Shown one piece after another: positions 4,847 through 17,665 of a DNA stretch of 24,317 nt. Source of the stretch: Escherichia phage CBA6; sequence record KM389296.1, one strand, 5' to 3'. Every line of letters begins with the position of its first letter. The stretch's first letter is position 1. The notes under the pieces are model-generated. The model did not search any database and was not told where the DNA came from. It saw only the letters and a list, made by a program, of their open reading frames with translations. The position numbers and the translations under genes are program-made.

Positions 4847-7123
4847 TCAGACAACACAGGTGTCGCAAATTTCTTCAACTTGTTTCAACTCTTCATCTTC
4901 CTTAGAGTCTTTGTTGGTGTTGTAATACAGAGTTTTACCACCCCACATGTAGAAAGACAGAATATCCTGCATCATGAGAGAGCGCGGGATCTTCCCGTCT
5001 GGGAATTTCTCTGGATCATAATGTGTATTAACGCTGATGGATTGGTCTACCCAACGCTGGGCGACCGCCGCTGTTTTCAAATAGTCGATACAAGACAGAT
5101 TCCATTTCAGGTCATATAGAGGACCAAGGGTTTCAACGTCCGGAACGATCTGCTTGTAAACGCCATCCTTGCTGCCTTTGATACTGATGAGGCCTTTGGG
5201 TGGCTCTATACCATTCGTGGCGTTCAGCACCTGAGAGGAGCTTTCAGTTGGTGCTATCGCCAAGAGAGTAGCATTGCGGATACCATGGCAACGCAGAGAG
5301 TCTTTCAAACCGTCCCAGTCAAGGCCGTATGCCATACCTTCCGGCTTTTTACCATTGGGGAGGATATCCAGCGGCAACGGTTGAAGGTCGGCTGTTATCT
5401 TACCAGAACGATGAATGGTTTCCTTCTTACATGCCCCAAACTTCATGGCCAGACGATTCGAAGCCTTTACCAGATAGAAATGCAGGTGCGCCATCCACTT
5501 GTCCAGGAGTTCTAACCCAACAGGAGATCCATACCCTGTGAAGTTCTTGGCGAAGAAATGTGCAACGTTGACGACACCGATACCCAGAGGACGATATTCT
5601 TCCACAGCCAGACGGGCTTGACGTGCTGGATAATCTTGGTATTCCAGCAGCATATCCAAAGCTGAAACCAAGACATATGCAACGTCTTCCATTTCTGTCG
5701 GGTCTTCAAACGCCGTCAGGTTAAAAGAGGCCAAAGTACACAGAGCGATCCGACCTTCTTCATCGTCGTACTGTTGGAATTCACGAGTAGGAAGCGCAAT
5801 CTCCAGACACAGATTAGAACTATAGATTGTATCTAGATTGAATGGGCTGTACTGGTTCATGTGGTCGACAAACGCGATGTAGATGCGGCCTGTATCTGAA
5901 CGCTGATCCAACAACATCTGGAATACTTCTTCCGCATTCATCTTCTTGGCACGAACCAAACCAGCATCAGCAGCTTTGACCATGTTGTCGTACAGGGTAC
6001 GGAACTTATCGACATCTGCGAAAAACGCTTCGTACATATCGCGGTTGTCTTTCGGATCGAACAAATACAGGGGTTGTTTGTTCACCAGACGTTCGAACAT
6101 GACGCGGTTGATCTGAATACCATAGTCGATACGGCGTTCACGGTTCTCTTCAAGACCACGGTTGTTCTTCAGGACCACAACATCATCAAATTGATAATGC
6201 CAGATAGGGATATAGCAAGTTGCTGATCCGCCACGAATACCGCCTTGAGAGCAAGACTTTAATGCCCCAGTCAGATATTTTATGAAAGGAACCAGGCCTG
6301 TGTGCACCATTTCACCTTTTCGGATAGGGCTACCGATGCCACGAATTGCTCCAACATCAAATCCGATCCCAGCGCGTTTGGATACATAATCAACAATACT
6401 TTTGGCTGTAGCATTGATTGAGTCCAAAGTGTCACCGGTTTTGATAAGAACACAAGAACTGAATTGGCGGGTTGGGGTACGAACGCCGGACATGATGGGT
6501 GTTGGAAGACTGAATTTACCTGTACTGGCGTATTCATAAAATTTCTTCACCATCGTCAGGCGAGTTTCTTTATCCCATGCAGAGAACAGAGCCATCGCGA
6601 TCGCCATATACATGACTTGAGGCGTTTCGTAATATACTTTGCTGTCTGCTGAGCGATCGCGCAAAAGATATTTTTGCGTGAGCTGGCCCATAGCCGCCCA
6701 AGTAAAATTCTTGTCGCGTTTGTGATTGATGACCGTGTTCAGTTCTTCAAATTCTTCTTTCGTATAGAGTTCGAGGAATTCACGATCATAAACGCCCTGC
6801 TTGATGTTTTTAGCGAATATATCAAGCAAGTGAGGTGGCTTGTATCGCCCATAGACGACTTTGCGCAGGTCATACGATTTCAGGCGGGCAGCAACATATT
6901 GGTAGTTGGGTTTTTCTACAGAAATCAATGTAGCCGCCGCTTGGATGATAATATCCTGAATGCGTTCGGTTTTCATATTGTCTGTGAACTGAATCTTCGA
7001 TGCTGCTTCCACCTCAGACACCGAAACTCCTTCTAATCCTTCACAGGCACGTTCAAGAACAGTGTGGAGTTTTTCAATGTCAAAGGGGACAGAAGATCCG
7101 TCCCGCTTTATGATGTTAATCAT
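4847..7123 (-). CDS. nrdA: Ribonucleotide reductase class Ia alpha subunit
   Basis: N-terminal ATP-cone (IKRDGSSVPFDIEKL), PTPIMSGVRTPTRQFSSCVLI, NLCLEIALPT, C-terminal Cys pair; collinear with E. coli NrdA. GAGGA Shine-Dalgarno 8 nt upstream. Confidence 0.95.
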   Translation of the reverse strand: MINIIKRDGSSVPFDIEKLHTVLERACEGLEGVSVSEVEAASKIQFTDNMKTERIQDIIIQAAATLISVEKPNYQYVAARLKSYDLRKVVYGRYKPPHLLDIFAKNIKQGVYDREFLELYTKEEFEELNTVINHKRDKNFTWAAMGQLTQKYLLRDRSADSKVYYETPQVMYMAIAMALFSAWDKETRLTMVKKFYEYASTGKFSLPTPIMSGVRTPTRQFSSCVLIKTGDTLDSINATAKSIVDYVSKRAGIGFDVGAIRGIGSPIRKGEMVHTGLVPFIKYLTGALKSCSQGGIRGGSATCYIPIWHYQFDDVVVLKNNRGLEENRERRIDYGIQINRVMFERLVNKQPLYLFDPKDNRDMYEAFFADVDKFRTLYDNMVKAADAGLVRAKKMNAEEVFQMLLDQRSDTGRIYIAFVDHMNQYSPFNLDTIYSSNLCLEIALPTREFQQYDDEEGRIALCTLASFNLTAFEDPTEMEDVAYVLVSALDMLLEYQDYPARQARLAVEEYRPLGIGVVNVAHFFAKNFTGYGSPVGLELLDKWMAHLHFYLVKASNRLAMKFGACKKETIHRSGKITADLQPLPLDILPNGKKPEGMAYGLDWDGLKDSLRCHGIRNATLLAIAPTESSSQVLNATNGIEPPKGLISIKGSKDGVYKQIVPDVETLGPLYDLKWNLSCIDYLKTAAVAQRWVDQSISVNTHYDPEKFPDGKIPRSLMMQDILSFYMWGGKTLYYNTNKDSKEDEELKQVEEICDTCVV

Positions 7124-7207: not shown

Positions 7208-8047
7208 TTAAATGTTGTACAGGTCGTTAATTTCTAACATCAGGCGGGTGAAGTTACCGCGACCATTACGATCAGACTTATCGAATTCGATGATGCTGAA
7301 TGGCTGAACCCACTCAGGATATTCATCTCCGATTTCTACACCGTCAATTTGCAAAGAACCTGTTTCCAGCTTGTTGTTGAAGTCTTTAAAGGAATCCACA
7401 TACGTCTGTAACGCACTATCACGCAGTCGCTTGTTAGACTGTTTGATATCTCCATTCACGAAGATGTACGAAGAATCTGAAGCACGAGTCAATAAGTTTT
7501 TCAGTTGCTCCATATCGCATTCCTGCGCCTCTTCGATAATCAGGAAACAATCATCGAAAGTCATCCCCTTCACAGTTTCAAGGTCTTGAATTTCTATGAT
7601 GCGTTTCTCCCACAGATAGTTGAAGAAACCGTCGGAACCCGTATCTGTTTTGAGAACCTTTTTGAATGTCTGTATGAGCGGCATCAAATAAGGCATCAGC
7701 TTTTCATATGTGTCACCAGGCCGGAACCCCGCTGTGGTTCCAGTCGGTAAAGGAGAACGCGTGATGATAATCTTGTTGATGGTTTTGTCAATCAGATGCT
7801 TGGCAGCAGCGGACGCACCACAATAGGATTTGCCTGTACCTGCCGGACCGATAGCGATAGTGAGATGTTCATTGAGTGCGGATTGATATGCGAGGTTCTG
7901 ATTTTCTGAGAGGCCATTGAACGGAGCAATTTTGAAATCGCCTTTGGAAAACTTCATCCAGTCTTCTTCCTTCTGGATGGTGTCTTTCTTACGAGCAGAT
8001 TTTGTCTTCGCTGGCTTCATGGATACAACTTTAGACGCAGATTGCAT
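7208..8047 (-). CDS. phoH: PhoH-like ATPase
   Basis: Walker A AIGPAGTGKSY and Walker B-like FLIIEEAQ. The track's 8083 start is GTG; ATG 8047 has an AGGAAGG Shine-Dalgarno. Confidence 0.9.
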   Translation of the reverse strand: MQSASKVVSMKPAKTKSARKKDTIQKEEDWMKFSKGDFKIAPFNGLSENQNLAYQSALNEHLTIAIGPAGTGKSYCGASAAAKHLIDKTINKIIITRSPLPTGTTAGFRPGDTYEKLMPYLMPLIQTFKKVLKTDTGSDGFFNYLWEKRIIEIQDLETVKGMTFDDCFLIIEEAQECDMEQLKNLLTRASDSSYIFVNGDIKQSNKRLRDSALQTYVDSFKDFNNKLETGSLQIDGVEIGDEYPEWVQPFSIIEFDKSDRNGRGNFTRLMLEINDLYNI

Positions 8048-8128
8048 GTTGAACCTTCCTATATCTACAGGGGTTGTCGACACCTTTAATTAAGCGACGT
8101 GCCCAGCATACCTGTATGTTAGATAAAG

Positions 8129-8152
8129 AAAAAGGCCGTTTCCGGCCTTTTG
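8129..8152 (-). terminator. Rho-independent terminator after the endolysin gene (bidirectional in form)
   Basis: Stem AAAGGCCG / CGGCCTTT with TTTC loop immediately after the stop; on the minus strand followed by TTTTTCTTTATC. Confidence 0.65.
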
Positions 8153-8947
8153 TTAACAGAAACTCTTGTATGCCGCCGCTAGTTTGGTGTCATACTGGTT
8201 CTTGGCATATGCTGGACCATTGTACCGACGGGCGAACTCAGCCCAATTTTTGTTCTTCAATGCTTTCCACATATTGGCGTCAGCTTTGATGAATTTCACA
8301 AATGCCAGAAGATGTGCGCGTTCACCAGTCAGAAAATCTGTGAACATTTCTTTGGCGTTCGGATAACCACATATCTGGCAATTGAACCCCATGATCTGGA
8401 ATAAGCCGTAGGACGCACTCTCGTACGCGCAATCCTCATCAAGGGCGATTGCACCCTGAAGGCGTTCCAACTCCGCGTCTCCGCCGATATAGCCACCAGA
8501 ATTGGGGTTAACCAATGTTGGGTAAAGTTGGTACAGAGCATTGGCTCTTGCTTGTCCGAATTTAGCCGCCACTTTCTTATACATGATGTGGCGCTCGAAC
8601 AGAGTTTTGATCTTACCTGTTTTGGTGAAACCCGTTCCCCGAGATTCGACCTGGTTAACAGCTTTCATGCTGGCCAGTTCGACACCAAGTTCACGCGCTG
8701 CGTCAACTAAGTCGGCTTCGGTAAGATGTTCCTGATGAGCGTCTCCGGCATTACGGATAGCATAGAAGGTTTTTGGACCTGCAATACCATCAATCACCAG
8801 TCCGGCACCTGCCTGAACGGATTTGACAGCATTCTCGGTCGCTTTGCCAAATATGCCATCAGCTACAAGAGAGAACCCGATTTTATTGAGGCTTTGCTGA
8901 AGTGATTTGACTTCAGAACCTCGGTTGCCAAGTTTTAGAATGGCCAT
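8153..8947 (-). CDS. Endolysin: N-terminal peptidoglycan-binding domain plus C-terminal muramidase-like catalytic domain
   Basis: N-terminus LKLGNRGSEVKSLQQSLNKIGF...DGIFGKATENAVKSVQ is PG_binding_1-like; C-terminus (FERHIMYKK, GLFQIMGFN, NWAEFARRYNGPAYAKNQYDTKL) recalled as N-acetylmuramidase-type. No signal peptide or TM segment. Confidence 0.75.
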   Translation of the reverse strand: MAILKLGNRGSEVKSLQQSLNKIGFSLVADGIFGKATENAVKSVQAGAGLVIDGIAGPKTFYAIRNAGDAHQEHLTEADLVDAARELGVELASMKAVNQVESRGTGFTKTGKIKTLFERHIMYKKVAAKFGQARANALYQLYPTLVNPNSGGYIGGDAELERLQGAIALDEDCAYESASYGLFQIMGFNCQICGYPNAKEMFTDFLTGERAHLLAFVKFIKADANMWKALKNKNWAEFARRYNGPAYAKNQYDTKLAAAYKSFC

Positions 8948-8951
8948 AAGA

Positions 8952-8982
8952 AAATACCTCCGCAGTGATTGCAGAGGTATTT
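8952..8982 (-). promoter_or_regulatory. 5' leader hairpin sequestering the endolysin Shine-Dalgarno
   Basis: 9-bp outer stem plus 3-bp inner stem; the GGAGGT Shine-Dalgarno (8956-8961) lies in the stem, 8 nt before ATG 8947; a TTTAAATA box (8978-8985) overlaps the 5' arm. Confidence 0.45.
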
Positions 8983-9017
8983 AAAGTGAAAGTGAACTGA
9001 CTTGAGGAACTGTTATG

Positions 9018-12006: not shown

Positions 12007-12360
12007 TTAAGACAATTGCTTCAGTTTGTAGATGGTCTGATAGCACAGGGTTTTGATTTCATCGAGCGTATTTTGAAGATGGCTGTCACATTGACCGTAA
12101 ATTCCGTTTACGTCGATAACAACGCTATTGACATACGATATAGGATCTGGGTTGTACAGTTTAATATTCTCAAACCCTGGGACATATACACCACCCGCGC
12201 CGATATATGCCTCTGTAAAGGTATCCAGCAAGTCCTCCAGTTCCCCGTAGAACTCCCCGAGTGCCTTGTGCTTGGCATAGGACGTTGTAACGAAGTGGAG
12301 GGCATGAGAGTGGGCTATAGCAAGCAGTCCACGGTTGATGAAAATACTCGCGTTAACCAT
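12007..12360 (-). CDS. Hypothetical protein (117 aa)
   Basis: ATG with GAGGAAACAATC Shine-Dalgarno; preceded by a terminator hairpin. Confidence 0.55.
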   Translation of the reverse strand: MVNASIFINRGLLAIAHSHALHFVTTSYAKHKALGEFYGELEDLLDTFTEAYIGAGGVYVPGFENIKLYNPDPISYVNSVVIDVNGIYGQCDSHLQNTLDEIKTLCYQTIYKLKQLS

Positions 12361-12382
12361 GATTGTTTCCTCAGAAAAAGAA

Positions 12383-12404
12383 ATCCCCCTGTATTTAGGG
12401 GGAT
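12383..12404 (-). terminator. Rho-independent terminator after the 190-aa gene
   Basis: Stem ATCCCCCT / AGGGGGAT with 6-nt loop; on the minus strand followed by TTCTTTTTCTG. Confidence 0.6.
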
Positions 12405-12420
12405 CTTCATTTCACCACGA

Positions 12421-12993
12421 TTAAATCGGTTTCACTCCGATGTACTTGGCGATATCCGCGGCCAGGGTTTTCCCCTTACTGATATCTTGTTGCTTGCCAC
12501 CAACAGTAACGATCACATATGGGTCATCTTCACCGCCGAAGTCGATTGCCACGGCCTTGCCAATACCAGGGATGCCGGAATATTCATATTCAGTGCGACC
12601 GCTTTTGCGAGACTTGCCGACACCCAGCGCTTTACCGATCATCTTATCCATGTTCGCTAGTTCTTGAGCATAGGATTCTGTGACCTGGCCTTTGCTGGCG
12701 TCTTTACCAAAGAAGAATTCGTATCCGTCATGAACGGCAACAACATCTTTGCCCACAGAAACCGCATGAACCTGGTCCGGCGTCAGTTTCACTTTAGTAG
12801 TATTACCATTAGTCAATTCCAGATTATAGACATCGGCCTGATTATCAGGAGTGATCTGGGTCACGGTAGCGCCGGAGCACCATTGTGTTCCATCGGCTTG
12901 TTTAGTGATGGTTACACTTTTGCCTTGTATACCGCCATGAGTTTGCGGCTGCTGGGCTTGTTCTTTAAAATATTCGATAAACGGTTTCATCAT
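12421..12993 (-). CDS. Hypothetical protein (190 aa)
   Basis: ATG with AGGAG Shine-Dalgarno; flanked by hairpins at both ends; Gly/Lys-rich; no recognisable motif. Confidence 0.6.
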   Translation of the reverse strand: MMKPFIEYFKEQAQQPQTHGGIQGKSVTITKQADGTQWCSGATVTQITPDNQADVYNLELTNGNTTKVKLTPDQVHAVSVGKDVVAVHDGYEFFFGKDASKGQVTESYAQELANMDKMIGKALGVGKSRKSGRTEYEYSGIPGIGKAVAIDFGGEDDPYVIVTVGGKQQDISKGKTLAADIAKYIGVKPI

Positions 12994-13019
12994 GGATCTC
13001 CTAAGGATTTTGATGTATT

Positions 13020-13037
13020 TAGCCCCCGAAGGGGCTA
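13020..13037. terminator. Stable hairpin (CGAA/UUCG tetraloop) between the 906-aa and 190-aa genes
   Basis: Stem TAGCCCC / GGGGCTA; the T-tract (TGGTTTATTT) is on the plus side and is weaker on the minus side, so terminator versus processing site is unresolved. Confidence 0.45.
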
Positions 13038-13041
13038 TGGT

Positions 13042-15762
13042 TTATTTCAGACGGATCTGGAGATTACCACCCAGTGATTGTTCATATTCACTGTAAGCAC
13101 TGTCACCATTGCTCATAGCCCATTCGTCCGACTGACGGGCGCTATCCAAAGTCATGAGATTCGGTTCGGTCGGGTTGTATCCCTTCGCCTTCGCATCGTT
13201 GTATACCGTTTGCAGGTACTGGTTGGCACGGTTAATCTGATCTTTGAACTCACGATATGCACCTTCGGTTGTGTTGCGACGGAAGGTGATACTCCAATCG
13301 ACGTTAAGAACTGCGCCGCTATTGGTCACGTATACCTGCCAATCAAGATCTCGTCCGTTGGGAGCACTGTTGCGGATGGAATCGGAATATGTGGCCAGAT
13401 CGCTGCTGTTCTTGCCCCCAGCAGCTTGGTCTTTGGCGCGAGCCAGGGCATCAATGACTGCAGTGCGGTTTCTAGACTGCGCCAGATCTTTGTCTTGGAA
13501 CATAATTGCACCAAACTTACTGACGGTGATATCATTCAGAAACAGCTTGTTCGGGTTATAGTTTGATGAACTGAGATGGCTCAATTGAGCCGCAGCGTCT
13601 TTCAGGCGTTGTGAAGTCTCATTCAACGCATCTTGCACAGACTTGACAGATAACTGAATGTCATATCCGCTGCTGTTGACTACATTTCGGCCATTTTCGG
13701 TCAGCATGGTCGTGATGTTGGCCTTATTACGATCGAAGTCGTAAGTCACGTTCGTAACGAACCGTGCGGCTTGCAGCTGGCTACCCGCAGGGAACTGGAA
13801 GTCCCAAGCCACAGAGAACCCATGAACGGTTTCACCAAATATCTTCGCATTGCTTGGGGCTTTCAGGTTCGCAGTGATGACAGCGTTATCACTGGAATTT
13901 GTGTTGATTTCGCCGAAGATAGTCTTCCCATCAGAAGACTGGACCATCAGAGTATCTTTGCTGCGCCAGTCATAACGAACAATAAACGTCGTTCGAGGGA
14001 ACTCTTTTATCAGATCGAGTTTGACTGCCTTACCCAGAGTAAAACGATTTAACAATGCATCGGCGATCTTCAAAGTAAACGAAATACAATCGACATAAGA
14101 ATAACCCTGGGAACGGGAAACCTTTTGAATCGGGTATGGGGCACCGTTGATCGGAACAACACGACATTCCACTTCACCTTTGAACTGAGAATCAGCAGCG
14201 CGGGATATCGCACTGACGATTTCAAAAGCAGCGTTTTTCACGTCGCCTTCCAGCAGCAGCTGTTCATTGCCAGATAAATCAGAAACCACTTCTACAGAGA
14301 GTTTGCTGTTGACAATCCCCCAAAAATAGACTTGAATATCCAACCCGCCAGAAGTTCGATATTTGCCAGCACCAACCCGAGACAATTTTTCACCAGCATA
14401 CATGCCGACTTGCTGAGGAGCATATGTATCAACGATGCCCAAGATGCGGGCGATATAACCCTGGTTGCGCAGATCATCCATAGAACCGGTTTTTGGAAGA
14501 GTTTTCATGTCGACGGGAGCAGTAGCCCCTATTCCAAACTCGACGTATGCCACGATCTTCCCACCAGACTTCAGTTCCCAGCCCATTCCCTGACGGTCTG
14601 AAGCCGCCATGATTTTGCGATCCACTTCTCCACGCCCGACATATTCTTTGTTGAATACCGTCACTTGTGCGATAGACTGAGTGCGGGCAATCTTCGCCAT
14701 CGCGCCATCTTTGACCATGATAGCCAGGTCATTGGAACTCAGGGTCACGTCGTTCGCGCCGACCACCTTCACAACAGAACTGAAGATGCCGTTGGACTTT
14801 GCCATAACGGAGATGTTCCAGTCCGGATTTATGGAAGACGGTGCATCAGCATCAACGTCAACAGTCAAAACCACTTGCCCACCTTTCTTGAACACATACT
14901 GATCATAGATGCCTTTATTTTGTTTTGTCATGACAGCGCCGACCAGATCCTGGTTAGTGAATCCCCGCTTCATGCTCCATGCCACTTCGGTGCCGTCCGG
15001 ATATTTGTCGAAATCATACCCAAAGAACTTCGCCACTTCACGTGAGCCACTGACCAGCTGCACGTAATTTCCGCGAATTGGGTCACGGCCATTTTTCAGT
15101 TCAAGACTAGTGTCAGAACTGTTATACCATTGGCGGTTTACTTCAATCTCGGTGCTGGAGCCAGTCCCAACATCAGGGGTGTTGTTCTGAACCGGAACGT
15201 CTCCGACTTTGTCTGGATCGTCCCAAGTCACGCCTTTCATTTTCGGACCATCAAATACCTGAGCAGGATCCTTGCCTTTACGCACAACCCATACGAAGGC
15301 ACGGTCAGGGATTGGGGTATAAGTCAGATCCATGACGTTGAGTTTCTGCTTCAGACCAGATTGACGAATAATTTTTGGGAGTAACGTCGTTCCGCGTTCT
15401 AGAGCTTTCTTGGAGAAGTTAATCGCAAACCCATCAATGGTTTTACCCAGCGGTGTCGCCATGAATTGTTTAGTCGCTTCGATCATGGATGCGATGACAC
15501 GCATTGGGTTTTTGAAACGACCGATTGCGTCTGGATAGGTTGAACCACGTTTCTGGCCTATGAAGACCTGACGAACGTTCTTGCCCAGCCCCTGCGGGGT
15601 ATAAAATTGGATGCGGAATTCTTTTTCATCTTCGTCTACGAACGTGAAGAAAATGTCACCAGCATTTTTCTTGCCGAAAGTCAATTCGTATGGAGCGGAG
15701 TTAAACGCTTCGTCCAATTGTTTGGACTCGTCAAGGAAATTTAAGAAAGATTGGATGGCCAT
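13042..15762 (-). CDS. Large hypothetical protein (906 aa), function unknown
   Basis: Uninterrupted 2.7-kb ORF with ATG and AGGAG Shine-Dalgarno (AGGAGAATTACAATG); bracketed by hairpins; no catalytic motif recognised. Confidence 0.8.
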   Translation of the reverse strand: MAIQSFLNFLDESKQLDEAFNSAPYELTFGKKNAGDIFFTFVDEDEKEFRIQFYTPQGLGKNVRQVFIGQKRGSTYPDAIGRFKNPMRVIASMIEATKQFMATPLGKTIDGFAINFSKKALERGTTLLPKIIRQSGLKQKLNVMDLTYTPIPDRAFVWVVRKGKDPAQVFDGPKMKGVTWDDPDKVGDVPVQNNTPDVGTGSSTEIEVNRQWYNSSDTSLELKNGRDPIRGNYVQLVSGSREVAKFFGYDFDKYPDGTEVAWSMKRGFTNQDLVGAVMTKQNKGIYDQYVFKKGGQVVLTVDVDADAPSSINPDWNISVMAKSNGIFSSVVKVVGANDVTLSSNDLAIMVKDGAMAKIARTQSIAQVTVFNKEYVGRGEVDRKIMAASDRQGMGWELKSGGKIVAYVEFGIGATAPVDMKTLPKTGSMDDLRNQGYIARILGIVDTYAPQQVGMYAGEKLSRVGAGKYRTSGGLDIQVYFWGIVNSKLSVEVVSDLSGNEQLLLEGDVKNAAFEIVSAISRAADSQFKGEVECRVVPINGAPYPIQKVSRSQGYSYVDCISFTLKIADALLNRFTLGKAVKLDLIKEFPRTTFIVRYDWRSKDTLMVQSSDGKTIFGEINTNSSDNAVITANLKAPSNAKIFGETVHGFSVAWDFQFPAGSQLQAARFVTNVTYDFDRNKANITTMLTENGRNVVNSSGYDIQLSVKSVQDALNETSQRLKDAAAQLSHLSSSNYNPNKLFLNDITVSKFGAIMFQDKDLAQSRNRTAVIDALARAKDQAAGGKNSSDLATYSDSIRNSAPNGRDLDWQVYVTNSGAVLNVDWSITFRRNTTEGAYREFKDQINRANQYLQTVYNDAKAKGYNPTEPNLMTLDSARQSDEWAMSNGDSAYSEYEQSLGGNLQIRLK

Positions 15763-15816
15763 TGTAATTCTCCTGATAATAAATCGGTGCGGTTTTCCTT
15801 AATTAGCGAAAAGAAA

Positions 15817-15832
15817 GGGGCATCAAGCCCCC
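15817..15832 (-). terminator. Rho-independent terminator after the 122-aa gene
   Basis: Stem GGGGC / GCCCC with ATCAA loop; on the minus strand followed by TTTCTTTTCGC. Confidence 0.55.
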
Positions 15833-15843
15833 GCATATTCGTA

Positions 15844-16212
15844 TTATAACCCTTCAATCCTTACGTTGACATATTTTGTTTCGTAATTCGGGTCACGGCC
15901 TTCAGAGTAGTCATATGTCTGAATGGTCTGTACGCACAGAGTTATTTTGAATTTGGCAATCTTCATAACCGCGATGCCAAAGTCAACCAGGTCATCCTTT
16001 TTATCTAGCACCAGGCCTTTAGTGCCGAGTTCACGTAATAAGTCTTTAAACAAGCGCTTGGACGGGTTGCTGATATCGAGCGGACCAGTTTTACACAGGG
16101 GAAACCCCTTGATGATTTTGTTGCTACGGTCACGCGCGATTTTATTGTTCCCACGACGAATATTCTTGTACCCAGCAACGTTTAGAATGTTGTTCAATTC
16201 AGTTTTGGTCAT
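15844..16212 (-). CDS. Hypothetical protein (122 aa)
   Basis: ATG 16212 preceded by the conserved leader AGCAGGAACTACATC; the track's 16233 start is TTG. Basic, Lys-rich. Confidence 0.6.
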   Translation of the reverse strand: MTKTELNNILNVAGYKNIRRGNNKIARDRSNKIIKGFPLCKTGPLDISNPSKRLFKDLLRELGTKGLVLDKKDDLVDFGIAVMKIAKFKITLCVQTIQTYDYSEGRDPNYETKYVNVRIEGL

Positions 16213-16285
16213 GATGTAGTTCCTGCTTTTCAAGTTGGTGTCGTACTGCTTATGTTTAGAATTATACGGTAGTTATTGAAGAAGT

Positions 16286-16309
16286 AAAGGGGCGTTTGCC
16301 CCTTTTATT
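16286..16309. terminator. Bidirectional rho-independent terminator
   Basis: AAAGGGGC / GCCCCTTT stem with GTTT loop; TTTTATT on the plus side and TTTACTTCTTC on the minus side. Confidence 0.65.
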
Positions 16310-16317
16310 GAATTATT

Positions 16318-16956
16318 TTAAGGTGTGGGATTGACGACAGGGATGTGAAATCTGATTCCAGCAACGATGTCCTTCAGCTGAGGCTTCCAGCCGTCCACCA
16401 GGCGGGACAACGCATTGGAACCAGGATAGACGATAATGATATCGCTTCCGGTAACATTATGCTGAGGGAATTGTGACATGTATTGCTCCATCGTCACACC
16501 TGTGTCAATCAATACAGGACCAACATCAGAAGATGCATATGTCGCGCCCAGACCGTCAATACCCCATGCCAGAATTCCATAATCGGGAATATTGGCTTCG
16601 GATGTTATGGTGTATCCGAAGATACGATTCAACGCCGAGAAGTCATAGACATTGTGAGCACTATCATATGCCAGATAACCTTTGGCCAACATATCAGCAA
16701 AGATCGCGTCTGTGTCGCCAGCGGCTGGGGTCGGAACGGTAAACAGTAGCTCACCTGCCGGAGGAGTAGGATACGTGCCGAGAGCATAAAGGCACCATGC
16801 GTCGACACATTTCTTGATAAACGCTTCGGGAGCAACATAATCAGCCAGGCGCATCGTTCCAGAATATTCAGAACTGATGATGCCTTCTTTTGCCCCCTGA
16901 ATCGCAATAAACACCATTAAGTGCTCGTATCCGGTCTGAGATGGAGTGATATTCAT
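16318..16956 (-). CDS. Hypothetical protein (212 aa)
   Basis: ATG overlaps the stop of the upstream SLT-like gene by 1 nt (TAATG); no signal peptide; no recognisable motif. Confidence 0.6.
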   Translation of the reverse strand: MNITPSQTGYEHLMVFIAIQGAKEGIISSEYSGTMRLADYVAPEAFIKKCVDAWCLYALGTYPTPPAGELLFTVPTPAAGDTDAIFADMLAKGYLAYDSAHNVYDFSALNRIFGYTITSEANIPDYGILAWGIDGLGATYASSDVGPVLIDTGVTMEQYMSQFPQHNVTGSDIIIVYPGSNALSRLVDGWKPQLKDIVAGIRFHIPVVNPTP

Positions 16957-17573
16957 TATCGGGTCCTCTTGAGTTTCTCAATCGTGCGCTTATTCATGGC
17001 GATCACTCCTGGGTCGACCTTCGGGTTTATTGCCATGCCTTTGAAAGACACACATCGTTGAAGATATTTAGCCTTCTTCACGACATCAGCAGCGTATGAA
17101 TTGGATTTTTGGTTACGACTGAAACCGGCATTGTAAGAGGAGAGCGATTTGCGGATGTTTTGGTTATGATACCCAAGCCAGAAATTCATTTCATCAAGGG
17201 CTGCATTGGCTGCGTACTCTTGATTGACCAGCAATTTAATCGCCACGTTGGCGTAACACTTCTGTGTTTTGCATCCCTCCCGTTTCCCAACGGTTTGGAC
17301 GCGATTTTGGAATGCCCCCATATTAGCCGATTTCAGGTTATTCCGCATGGATACCACATCTTCTCCGGCGCGGCTTTCCCTCCATGATATCGCGGCTAGG
17401 GTGAAACCAAGGTCTTGCTGTTTGCCTATGTGATAGGCAGTGGCCATAGTTGAAAGTTGCTGATCAGAAAATTCGTAATCACATTGGGTGGTACTTTGGG
17501 AAGCGTACACACTCCCGCTGGCAATGGTAAAGGTCACGGACAAGGCCATGGCCTTCAACGTTGTCATCGTCAT
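16956..17573 (-). CDS. Secreted lytic transglycosylase-like protein (SLT domain) with N-terminal signal peptide
   Basis: N-terminus MTMTTLKAMALSVTFTIASGSVYA looks like a Sec signal peptide; SLT family motifs in order: WRESRAG (catalytic E-S), NMGAFQ, SYNAGF, YAADVVKKAKY. Confidence 0.65.
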   Translation of the reverse strand: MTMTTLKAMALSVTFTIASGSVYASQSTTQCDYEFSDQQLSTMATAYHIGKQQDLGFTLAAISWRESRAGEDVVSMRNNLKSANMGAFQNRVQTVGKREGCKTQKCYANVAIKLLVNQEYAANAALDEMNFWLGYHNQNIRKSLSSYNAGFSRNQKSNSYAADVVKKAKYLQRCVSFKGMAINPKVDPGVIAMNKRTIEKLKRTR

Positions 17574-17639: not shown

Positions 17640-17665
17640 AAGGGCACTTGATATTTAGTGCCCTT
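17640..17665 (-). terminator. Rho-independent terminator ending the recombination/late-sigma operon
   Basis: Stem AAGGGCACT / AGTGCCCTT with 8-nt loop; on the minus strand followed by TATCTTTTAACC. Confidence 0.6.

Follow-up and report, generated by a model that had tools for sequence, protein, structure and literature searches.

Our results suggest that the largest gene in the window, a 24,317-nucleotide stretch of the Escherichia phage CBA6 genome (KM389296.1), encodes a relative of the T4 head protein Alt. We estimate a probability of about 60% that its 906-aa product is an Alt-type protein that is processed by the prohead protease, packaged in the head and injected into the host, and that it lacks an ADP-ribosyltransferase (ART) domain. 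The reading is based on the N-terminal domain, which profile comparisons relate to that of Alt, and on orthologs that are abundant in the virions of two genera.

A conserved gene of the Ackermannviridae

The gene is real, as is the Shine-Dalgarno sequence that precedes it, and no other open reading frame in the window is as long (the next ones encode 777 and 758 aa). The product is a protein of about 100 kDa with a pI of 8.45 and no transmembrane segments. The initial annotation described it as an orphan inserted into a T4-like genome. None of this holds. The protein matches 268 homologous clusters and 358 phage records, and it aligns with phrog_3867 over its full length (E = 0, 1360 bits; residues 1–906 against profile positions 1–787 of 787). 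The genome is that of a Vi01-like Kuttervirus (Ackermannviridae) and not T4-like. All relatives examined carry an ortholog at this locus; the orthologs include Vi01_094c, Sajous1 gp214 (P0015, a syntenic ortholog) and LIMEstone1 ORF082 and ORF081, two ORFs that together make up one ortholog. It belongs to the conserved, syntenic core genes of the Ackermannviridae.

Table 1. Features of the 906-aa gene and its surroundings (positions in the window; residues are those of the 906-aa protein)
Feature	Positions	Strand	Remarks
Complete gene, 906-aa protein, phrog_3867 member	13042..15762	-	ATG-initiated ORF
Acidic leader MAIQSFLNFLDESKQLDE, residues 1–18	15709..15762	-	two [L/I]-x-E sites, last residues E12 and E18
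Alt-type N-terminal domain, residues 19–190	15193..15708	-	identity at least 78% in all 120 family clusters listed
Polymorphic central cassette, residues 191–425	14488..15192	-	modelled at low confidence
107-residue in-frame module, residues 200–306	14845..15165	-	cleanly absent from Vi01, ECML-4, Maynard and Marshall
Conserved beta-rich region, then helices, residues 426–800	13363..14487	-	pLDDT about 70–90
Portable C-terminal ~100-aa module (TFRRNT...SAYSEYEQSxGG), residues 801–906	13045..13362	-	
Shine-Dalgarno AGGAG	15770..15774	-	7-nt spacer to ATG
5'-UTR block CGCTAATTAAGGAAAACCGC	15789..15808	-	kept in Vi01, Sajous1 and Dickeya phage LIMEstone1
Upstream hairpin with T-run on coding strand	15816..15832	-	-15.3 kcal/mol, z -3.7
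Downstream hairpin, no U-tract on coding strand	13020..13037	-	-13.3 kcal/mol, z -3.3
CTAAATA motif, overlapping 3' arm of downstream hairpin	13016..13022	-	23 nt before 190-aa gene
190-aa gene, phrog_4048	12421..12993	-	orthologs Sajous1 gp215 and LIMEstone1 ORF080 are virion proteins
117-aa DUF5856 gene	12007..12360	-	orthologs Sajous1 gp217 and LIMEstone1 ORF078 detected in virions
212-aa DUF7270 gene	16318..16956	-	ortholog LIMEstone1 ORF085 is a confirmed virion protein
205-aa gene, 'RegB' in relatives	16956..17573	-	SLT transglycosylase domain match at cut-off

Homology to the N-terminal domain of Alt

That no motif could be assigned to the protein is correct for the protein as a whole. 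It has no significant match in Pfam or NCBIfam, no match to PDB sequences at E ≤ 10 and none to the defence and anti-defence families of PADLOC at E ≤ 1, and a Foldseek search of the full predicted model against the PDB returned nothing below 1e-3. The claim does not hold for the N-terminal domain. When a profile of 32 diverse N-domains is compared with a profile of 10 Alt N-termini, residues ~8–177 align with the N-terminal domain of T4 Alt, collinear from the N-terminus (hhalign, 96.3% probability, E 1.5e-9, 166 columns). The score is 65.8, whereas the reversed and 20 column-shuffled controls (n = 21) score between 9 and 19, with E ≥ 0.05. We conclude from this comparison of profiles that residues ~8–177 are homologous to the PF26846-type region at the N-terminus of Alt, a relationship that is new here. 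It is clear only at the profile-versus-profile level: BLASTP of the 906-aa protein against T4 Alt is not significant (E 0.54), and the N-domain profile matches a single Alt sequence weakly (7.4 bits; 4.6% in hhalign).

At least four bridging proteins (P0199, P0201, P0214 and P0183) combine the N-domain with the PF03496 ART domain, and 6 of 47 N-domain proteins match 'Alt-like' PHROGs; the 906-aa protein itself matches none of the latter. Nor does it contain PF03496, even at E ≤ 10, in the same scan that finds the domain in T4 Alt at 5.8e-36. The N-domain heads many other large proteins with differing downstream parts. In Vibrio Ackermannviridae the N-domain occurs in two or three paralogs that differ in their C-terminal parts, and the family includes ART, anthrax-LF-like peptidase and DinI-like fusions. 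A homolog search with the N-domain alignment returned short fragments only.

We propose that the N-domain is a capsid-core targeting module. Core localisation has been called 'mysterious' in a review of the T4 head (PMC9958956), and Alt's own N-domain is a candidate for Alt's capsid-targeting determinant. The domain could also have an enzymatic or other role, because it is far more conserved than a simple tag needs to be and because its predicted structure is a GNAT-like fold (pLDDT 86.6). One could argue that it is catalytically active as a GNAT-type acyltransferase, or else is a related domain that binds ligands, that the protein is primarily an enzyme and that the likeness to Alt reflects a shared catalytic rather than packaging module. 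We consider this unlikely, though it would be compatible with packaging. The 906-aa protein matches no Pfam GNAT family, and the acetyl-CoA pyrophosphate-binding motif Q/R-x-x-G-x-G/A expected before helix alpha3 is absent; the segment before helix 86–101 reads GRFKNPMRVIA.

A predicted propeptide

Every N-domain has a short variable leader, after which comes L-x-E-A-F-(D/N)-S-x-P-Y. The L-x-E↓A-F motif (the arrow marks the presumptive cut) is invariant in the family and aligns with L-N-E-V-F of the Alt family and with Alt's annotated processing site. In T4 Alt six N-terminal residues are annotated as removed (MELITE↓LFDE), gp21 is known to trim gpAlt, and about 40 copies of gpAlt reside in the scaffolding core (PMC9958956). 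The leader of the 906-aa protein contains two [L/I]-x-E sites, FLDE12 and QLDE18. From these patterns we predict that residues 1–18 are a propeptide that is cut off by the T4-type prohead protease.

The Sajous1 supplements, which we searched for N-terminal processing, contain no peptide sequences.

A polymorphic cassette between conserved regions

Behind the N-domain lies a central segment that differs greatly between relatives: with limits defined by HMMs for clustering, it is 22–453 aa long and comes in at least 15 unrelated types. The 107-residue module within it is missing from four phages that are otherwise about 98% identical in DNA sequence. A tandem repeat in the middle segment was considered and rejected, since its two halves have no detectable relation (E 0.35). 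The polymorphism suggests a host- or defence-specific interaction.

Residues 426–906 are conserved, yet no known fold could be detected in them, and residues 426–800 have no informative structural or sequence relative. The C-terminal module of about 100 aa is also found in metagenomic proteins, many of them small and some large.

Orthologs in virions

Published proteomics has already shown the orthologs to be among the most plentiful proteins of the virion in two genera. In CsCl-purified Sajous1 virions gp214 accounts for 196 spectra, and only the major capsid protein (924) and gp140 (311) have more, although spectral counts are not normalised (PMC10892097). The same virions include the prohead protease and core proteins (PMC10892097). 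In LIMEstone1, ORF081 was detected with 23 unique peptides and 55% coverage, and only the tail sheath gave more peptides; ORF082 contributed 4 peptides (PMC3296691). The initial annotation offered three guesses, a packaged internal protein, a host-takeover effector and an anti-defence factor. The first is now the best supported, through the abundance of the orthologs in virions and the homology of the N-domain to Alt.

It had also been noted that a confident match to a conserved T4 structural protein, such as a baseplate or tail-fibre component, at a locus shared with relatives would speak against an orphan of this kind. A conserved T4 virion protein is indeed matched with confidence at the profile level, and relatives carry the gene at this locus. 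The matched protein, however, is the internal protein Alt, which belongs to neither baseplate nor fibre, and the match extends over the first ~180 residues only.

Abundance in virions would fit a structural role as well. The protein might be an external component of the tail, neck or baseplate, anchored to the virion by its N-domain and exposing its variable middle to the host surface. Some database records carry the names 'tail completion protein' (Sajous1 gp214) or 'tail fiber protein', and a conserved anchor followed by a variable region recalls receptor-binding proteins. We nevertheless regard an external position as quite unlikely. There is no match to tail, neck or fibre proteins in Pfam, PHROG, NCBIfam or the PDB, the model has no fibre-like or beta-helix fold, and the gene lies outside the structural module and the tailspike locus. 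Furthermore, the demonstrated homolog of the N-domain is an internal head protein, and the variable segment lies within the protein, not at its C-terminus, and shrinks to about 22 residues in some orthologs. We reject both database names, which no sequence or fold similarity to characterised tail completion, terminator or fibre proteins supports. LIMEstone1 ORF081-082 are labelled 'unknown structural proteins', and published sources give either no function or an unsupported one.

Another possibility is that the protein, though plentiful, is not structural: as a late or middle product it would act solely in the infected cell and simply co-purify with virions. In line with this, its gene lies among replication and recombination genes, a late promoter is not identifiable and the Sajous1 authors warn that proteins with low counts may be contaminants (PMC10892097). 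We regard this reading as very improbable. The third-highest spectral count in Sajous1 and the second-highest peptide count in LIMEstone1 come from independent laboratories and different genera, genuine replication enzymes reach only 1–5 spectra in the same data sets (PMC10892097), and the protein is homologous to one that is known to be packaged.

A proposed route from prohead to host

For an Alt-type internal protein we would expect the following course. Late in infection, the N-domain would build the 906-aa protein into the scaffolding core of the prohead. The T4-type prohead protease would then cut the invariant site after E18, and possibly also after E12. Several copies of the mature protein of ~98 kDa would be kept in the filled head and would leave it with the DNA into the host. 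Inside the cell, both the swappable central cassette and the 480 conserved residues at the C-terminus would act on host components. Location in the head, injection and an activity of the C-terminal part are what we infer here. That activity would differ from Alt's, because the ADP-ribosyltransferase domain is absent.

A broader and more tentative idea is that the Alt-type N-domain is a general capsid-loading adaptor of T4-type heads, which also targets Alt and has been reused for many cargos. In the Ackermannviridae its cargo might be an injected effector of high copy number, and host-specific targets or defence systems might select for the exchange of the central cassette, through recombination between junctions that are conserved.

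Comparison with known systems

The 906-aa protein resembles Alt, the head-packaged RNA polymerase ADP-ribosyltransferase of T4, in several respects. Both are large virion-associated myovirus proteins with the homologous domain of ~180 residues right at the N-terminus and a short leader whose [L/I]-x-E end lies at the aligned processing site. The gene is again located outside the head gene cluster, in a phage with T4-type head morphogenesis genes. Unlike Alt, the protein lacks PF03496, its other ~720 residues are unrelated in pairwise BLAST, and it has a polymorphic central cassette. By un-normalised spectral counts it appears far above Alt's ~40 copies. Virion association is documented for its orthologs, whereas packaging, cleavage and injection are presumed.

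The proposed route is also that of the T4 internal proteins IPI, IPII and IPIII, which enter the scaffolding core, lose a short N-terminal peptide to the prohead protease at [L/I]-x-E, stay in the head and are ejected together with the DNA. The leader MAIQSFLNFLDE has a pattern similar to their capsid-targeting sequence (MKTYQEFIAE-like), with SFLNFLDE loosely similar to TYQEFIAE, although homology cannot be demonstrated. The internal proteins are about 10–20 kDa in size, carry a targeting sequence of ~10 residues and share no sequence homology with the 906-aa protein, in which a folded domain of ~170 residues follows the leader.

MuF-fused polymorphic toxins and polyvalent proteins combine a head-associated N-terminal module with variable cargo (ARTs, peptidases) that is delivered with the DNA (Iyer et al. 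2017; PMC5512222, PMC9503650). The concept of a conserved N-terminal module fused to variable cargo is shared. The adaptor is different: the 906-aa protein has no Pfam match to a MuF (SPP1 gp7-like) head domain at E ≤ 1 and no significant LPD domain (LPD3, E 0.17, 12.5 bits, below the cut-off of 27), and its adaptor is the Alt-type domain. In the Ackermannviridae, moreover, the variable cassette lies inside the protein, whose C-terminus is conserved. Closest are phrog_3867, LIMEstone1 ORF081-082 and Sajous1 gp214, which belong to the same protein family. In the literature searched we found no description of the Alt-type N-domain, the processing motif, the GNAT-like fold or the cassette architecture.

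Vi01-like phages are widely used as candidates for biocontrol and therapy against Salmonella, E. coli O157 and Klebsiella, and their third most abundant virion protein is mislabelled in databases. The link to Alt supplies a mechanism that can be tested, from core targeting to protease processing and injection. The domain of ~170 residues is a candidate answer to how Alt and other proteins without a capsid-targeting sequence reach T4-type scaffolding cores. Should the domain prove to be a portable adaptor for loading, foreign proteins could be packaged into phage heads with its help, and the polymorphic cassette would then mark a conflict between phage and host and merit screening against defence systems.

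Transcript signals and neighbouring genes

The gene had been read as a stand-alone transcription unit bracketed by stable hairpins. Both hairpins exist, but the gene has no recognisable promoter of its own, and on the coding strand only the upstream one resembles a terminator. A T-run follows it there, so that it has the look of an intrinsic terminator belonging to the 129-aa gene upstream. The downstream hairpin is followed on the coding strand by AAATACATC, and its 3' arm overlaps the CTAAATAC motif. Such bracketing is not special to this gene, since comparable hairpins occur in neighbouring intergenic gaps (12381–12406 and 16283–16309).

The canonical T4 late promoter TATAAATA has no match in the window, and none is recognisable directly upstream of the gene. 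CTAAATA (compare the motif CTAAATAcCcc, PMC7283392) precedes neighbouring genes instead; at the position equivalent to 13016–13022, LIMEstone1 has an annotated TATAAATA late promoter. The motif occurs 4 times in the window where 2.0 would be expected; since 13% of the shuffled sequences also reach 4, the count alone is not significant. The CGCTAATTAAGGAAAACCGC block in the 5'-UTR, whose match in LIMEstone1 includes one R position, is by its conservation a candidate regulatory element, to which we assign no type.

Neighbours of the 906-aa gene also code for virion proteins (Table 1). The product of the 190-aa gene has an N-terminus, MMKPFIEYFKE, that resembles the capsid-targeting sequence of T4 IPII/III. 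For the 205-aa gene we reject the label 'RegB' and prefer the borderline SLT match; its ortholog Sajous1 gp211 accounts for 31 virion spectra.

Virion presence of orthologs

The 906-aa gene is a conserved core gene, and its orthologs are abundant virion proteins in two independent published proteomes. In CsCl-purified virions of Sajous1, the ortholog gp214 yielded 196 spectra, third behind the major capsid protein (924) and gp140 (311), and tailspikes, sheath and portal all gave fewer (PMC10892097). Sajous1 gp214 is also P0015 among our database homologs, from a locus that runs collinear with the window. The name 'tail completion protein' given to gp214 finds no support in any search we ran. 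In LIMEstone1, a Dickeya phage of the genus Limestonevirus, ORF081 was identified by 23 unique peptides (55% coverage), and only the tail sheath ranked above it; ORF082, which holds the N-terminal domain, gave 4 peptides (PMC3296691). The authors of that study remarked on a structural-protein cluster, ORF78-85, without explaining it.

Relationship to Alt

By profile comparison, the N-terminal domain (N-domain, residues ~1-190) is the N-terminal domain of Alt, the head-packaged RNA polymerase ADP-ribosyltransferase of phage T4. Aligned pairwise with Alt itself, the window protein gave no significant match. A profile of 32 diverse N-domains matched one of 10 Alt N-termini from different Straboviridae genera with 96.3% probability (E 1.5e-9) over 166 columns (query 8-177, Alt 2-184), and with 97.4% (E 3.9e-11) in global mode. 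Reversed and 20 column-shuffled Alt alignments scored 9-19 against 65.8 for the real one, with E values of at least 0.05.

Among the N-domain proteins scanned, P0199, P0201, P0214 and P0183 carry PF03496, the catalytic ADP-ribosyltransferase exoenzyme domain of T4 Alt. P0201 aligns with T4 Alt over both this domain (1.5e-15) and, in collinear order, the N-domain. PHROGs named 'Alt-like RNA polymerase ADP-ribosyltransferase' were matched by 6 of 47 N-domain proteins; among the proteins scanned, one N-domain is fused to an anthrax-lethal-factor-like peptidase domain and one to a DinI-like domain. Precomputed annotations place PF26846 on the Alt N-terminal region, and our Pfam result for the N-domain was empty because this family is absent from the copy scanned.

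The N-domain also occurs as paralogs in Vibrio Ackermannviridae, two in 207E48.1 (p0171, p0173) and three in YC (gp089, gp096, gp102), all of which lack the window's C-terminal module and differ in their downstream regions. In the T4 annotation, alt.-1/alt.-2 (5066-5451) is described as an old and now decayed duplicate of the beginning of alt, and Aeromonas phage 50AhydR13PP has two Alt-like genes side by side; the Alt N-terminal region has therefore been duplicated in Straboviridae too. Thus the N-domain behaves as a reusable N-terminal adaptor. The 906-aa protein itself falls outside the Alt enzyme family: we tested for the ADP-ribosyltransferase domain that defines this family, and it is absent. 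Its likeness to Alt and the internal proteins would lie in delivery. Our literature search found no paper tying this Ackermannviridae family to Alt.

Predicted processing and packaging

All N-domains begin with a short leader, variable and for the most part acidic, and continue with L-x-E-A-F-(D/N)-S-x-P-Y, a motif that the profile alignment places on L-N-E-V-F-D of the Alt family. In T4, gp21 takes small N-terminal peptides off IPI-III and gpAlt (PMC9958956), and GenBank X15811 records for alt '6 amino acids cleaved off' (MELITE, cut before LFDE). In the window protein, [L/I]-x-E sites end at E12 and E18, the next not before residue 505. Prohead protease, prohead core protein and scaffold are all present in Sajous1 virions (PMC10892097). 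The conserved motif, the T4 Alt parallel, the E12/E18 sites and the Sajous1 protease together lead us to the specific prediction that the prohead protease would cleave the 906-aa protein after E18.

T4 gpAlt is a component of the scaffolding core (~40 copies), and the localisation of core proteins besides IPII/IPIII has been termed 'mysterious' (PMC9958956). The N-domain would target the 906-aa protein to the corresponding core; cleavage after E18 would be followed by residence inside the head and, finally, by injection into the host. A packaged internal protein was among the roles proposed in the initial annotation. The virion presence of orthologs and the Alt-type N-domain favour it, while residence in the head and injection are steps that we infer.

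Orthologs of the neighbouring gene products turn up in virions as well (see table). The 190-aa protein may be a small internal protein: its start, MMKPFIEYFKE, resembles the T4 capsid-targeting sequences of IPII/IPIII (MKTYQEFIAE) and IPI (MKTFKEF). It contains no strict [L/I]-x-E site. Instead of RegB, the 205-aa protein may be a peptidoglycan hydrolase carried by the virion, judging from a borderline match to the SLT lytic transglycosylase domain (21.1 bits, cut-off 21.3), ES...GAFQ...YNAG motifs and a signal-peptide-like N-terminus. The 117-aa protein is named 'starvation-inducible transcriptional regulator' in PHROGs and called ferritin-like by Phyre (PMC10892097).

Features of the locus and virion detection of orthologs
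Feature	Position	Strand	Remark
541-aa ORF	467-2092	+
117-aa DUF5856 protein	12007-12360	-	Virion: Sajous1 gp217, 10 spectra; LIMEstone1 ORF078
Hairpin	12381-12406
CTAAATA	12392-12398	-	Upstream of 117-aa gene
190-aa protein	12421-12993	-	Virion: Sajous1 gp215, 32 spectra; LIMEstone1 ORF080
CTAAATA	13016-13022	-	Upstream of 190-aa gene
Downstream hairpin	13020-13037		-13.3 kcal/mol, z -3.3 vs shuffled controls
906-aa gene	13042-15762	-	ATG start
C-terminal module	13045-13362	-	Residues 801-906
5'-UTR block CGCTAATTAAGGAAAACCGC	15789-15808	-	Upstream of 906-aa gene
Upstream hairpin	15816-15832		-15.3 kcal/mol, z -3.7 vs shuffled controls
129-aa gene	15844-16233	-	phrog_13016
Hairpin	16283-16309
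205-aa gene	16956-17573	-	'RegB endoribonuclease' in relatives; virion: Sajous1 gp211, 31 spectra
CTAAATA	17065-17071	-	Within 205-aa gene
CTAAATA	17652-17658	-	Upstream of 205-aa gene
212-aa protein			Virion: LIMEstone1 ORF085

Conserved ends and a variable cassette

Besides the Alt-type N-domain with its conserved protease-site motif, the protein has a cassette architecture. When 34 diverse members of the family are aligned and identity to the window protein is taken in blocks of 25 residues, residues 1-190 are near-invariant (0.77-0.97), residues ~200-425 hypervariable (0.16-0.38, gaps 13-60% per block) and residues 426-906 moderately conserved (0.44-0.73). All 120 clusters among the matches listed retain at least 78% identity over residues 1-190. 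With its boundaries set by HMM, the middle segment is 22-453 residues long in 115 family members and comes in at least 15 groups that lack similarity to one another; in seven members the insert is all but absent. Residues 200-306 are exactly missing from Vi01, ECML-4, Maynard and Marshall, with both flanks ~98% DNA-identical to the window, and in Sajous1 an unrelated middle is framed by the conserved junctions ...DKVGDVP and ...TLPKTGSxDDLRNQGY. We therefore regard this as a cassette locus whose recombination flanks are conserved. Within the cassette of the window protein, the two halves have no detectable mutual similarity that would indicate an internal repeat.

We searched 1.84 billion representative proteins exhaustively with a profile and obtained 155 matches, which divide the protein into two portable modules, the N-domain and a C-terminal module of ~100 residues. 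The N-domain heads many proteins of 430-1400 aa. The C-terminal module (TFRRNT...SAYSEYEQSxGG) occurs in dozens of metagenomic proteins (P0177-P0268), mostly of 100-300 aa and at either end, and is fused once each to KMPT-N, YdcK beta-solenoid and FlgK_D1; among isolated phage genomes, tblastn finds it confined to Ackermannviridae.

Conservation of the locus

The reading frame is as initially annotated, the largest in the window, with a Shine-Dalgarno sequence (AGGAG) 7 nt 5' of the ATG. Its description as an orphan inserted into a T4-like phage has to be abandoned. The window shares 98% identity with Salmonella phages SeF3a, GEC_vB_GOT and GEC_vB_N6 and falls within Kuttervirus, a Vi01-like genus of the family Ackermannviridae. 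Matches occur in 191 phage records (DNA) and 358 (protein) and in 268 clusters of a large protein database, and phrog_3867 (function not assigned) takes in the protein over its full length. The gene occupies the same position, between the primase side and the gp46/47 side, in the five phages compared: Vi01 (Vi01_094c), FrontPhageNews (gp137), Sajous1 (gp214), EspM4VN (gene_182) and LIMEstone1 (ORF082 + ORF081). The LIMEstone1 ortholog (7416-9012) is annotated as two overlapping reading frames and that of Shigella phage Ag3 as three, probably through a sequencing or annotation frameshift; other Limestonevirus genomes match the region over an unbroken ~1.6-kb stretch.

Expression signals

Both hairpins said to mark the gene as a stand-alone unit exist and are far stabler than shuffled controls, but comparable hairpins occupy the adjacent intergenic gaps, and the bracketing therefore belongs to the whole gene block. 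On the coding strand a T-run comes after the upstream hairpin alone, and this hairpin looks like the terminator of the 129-aa gene before it. After the downstream hairpin the sequence is AAATACATC. In LIMEstone1 an equivalent hairpin after the ortholog precedes an annotated late promoter, TATAAATA; a composite of 3'-end hairpin and next-gene promoter is therefore the better reading of the downstream hairpin. TATAAATA itself was not found anywhere in the window.

CTAAATA, the core of the Ackermannviridae motif CTAAATAcCcc (PMC7283392), occurs four times in the window, always on the coding strand, a count that 13% of shuffles reach and that alone is not significant. Three copies lie just 5' of virion-protein genes, and two lie inside or abut the G+C-rich hairpins before the 117-aa and 190-aa genes, which suggests composite terminator/late-promoter elements. 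Neither motif stands directly upstream of the 906-aa gene. Its 5'-UTR block (cross-genus consensus CGCTAATTAAGGrAAACCGC) is shared by Vi01, Sajous1 and the distant LIMEstone1, in the last with one R position; a promoter variant, an RNA-processing site and a translational element are all possible roles for it. A sigma-70-like TTTACT-16-TATAAT lies farther upstream, 5' of the 129-aa gene. The CBA120 paper states the ViI-family late promoter to be unidentified.

A single metagenomic protein with the N-domain has an additional match to phrog_13016; this possible gene fusion would hint that the 129-aa and 906-aa genes are functionally linked. Sajous1 (gp216, 8018-8257; 20 virion spectra), LIMEstone1 (ORF079) and EspM4VN have a small extra gene separating the 190-aa gene from the 117-aa one; it is missing from the window (12360-12421). 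The 541-aa ORF lies on the strand opposite to nearly all other window genes.
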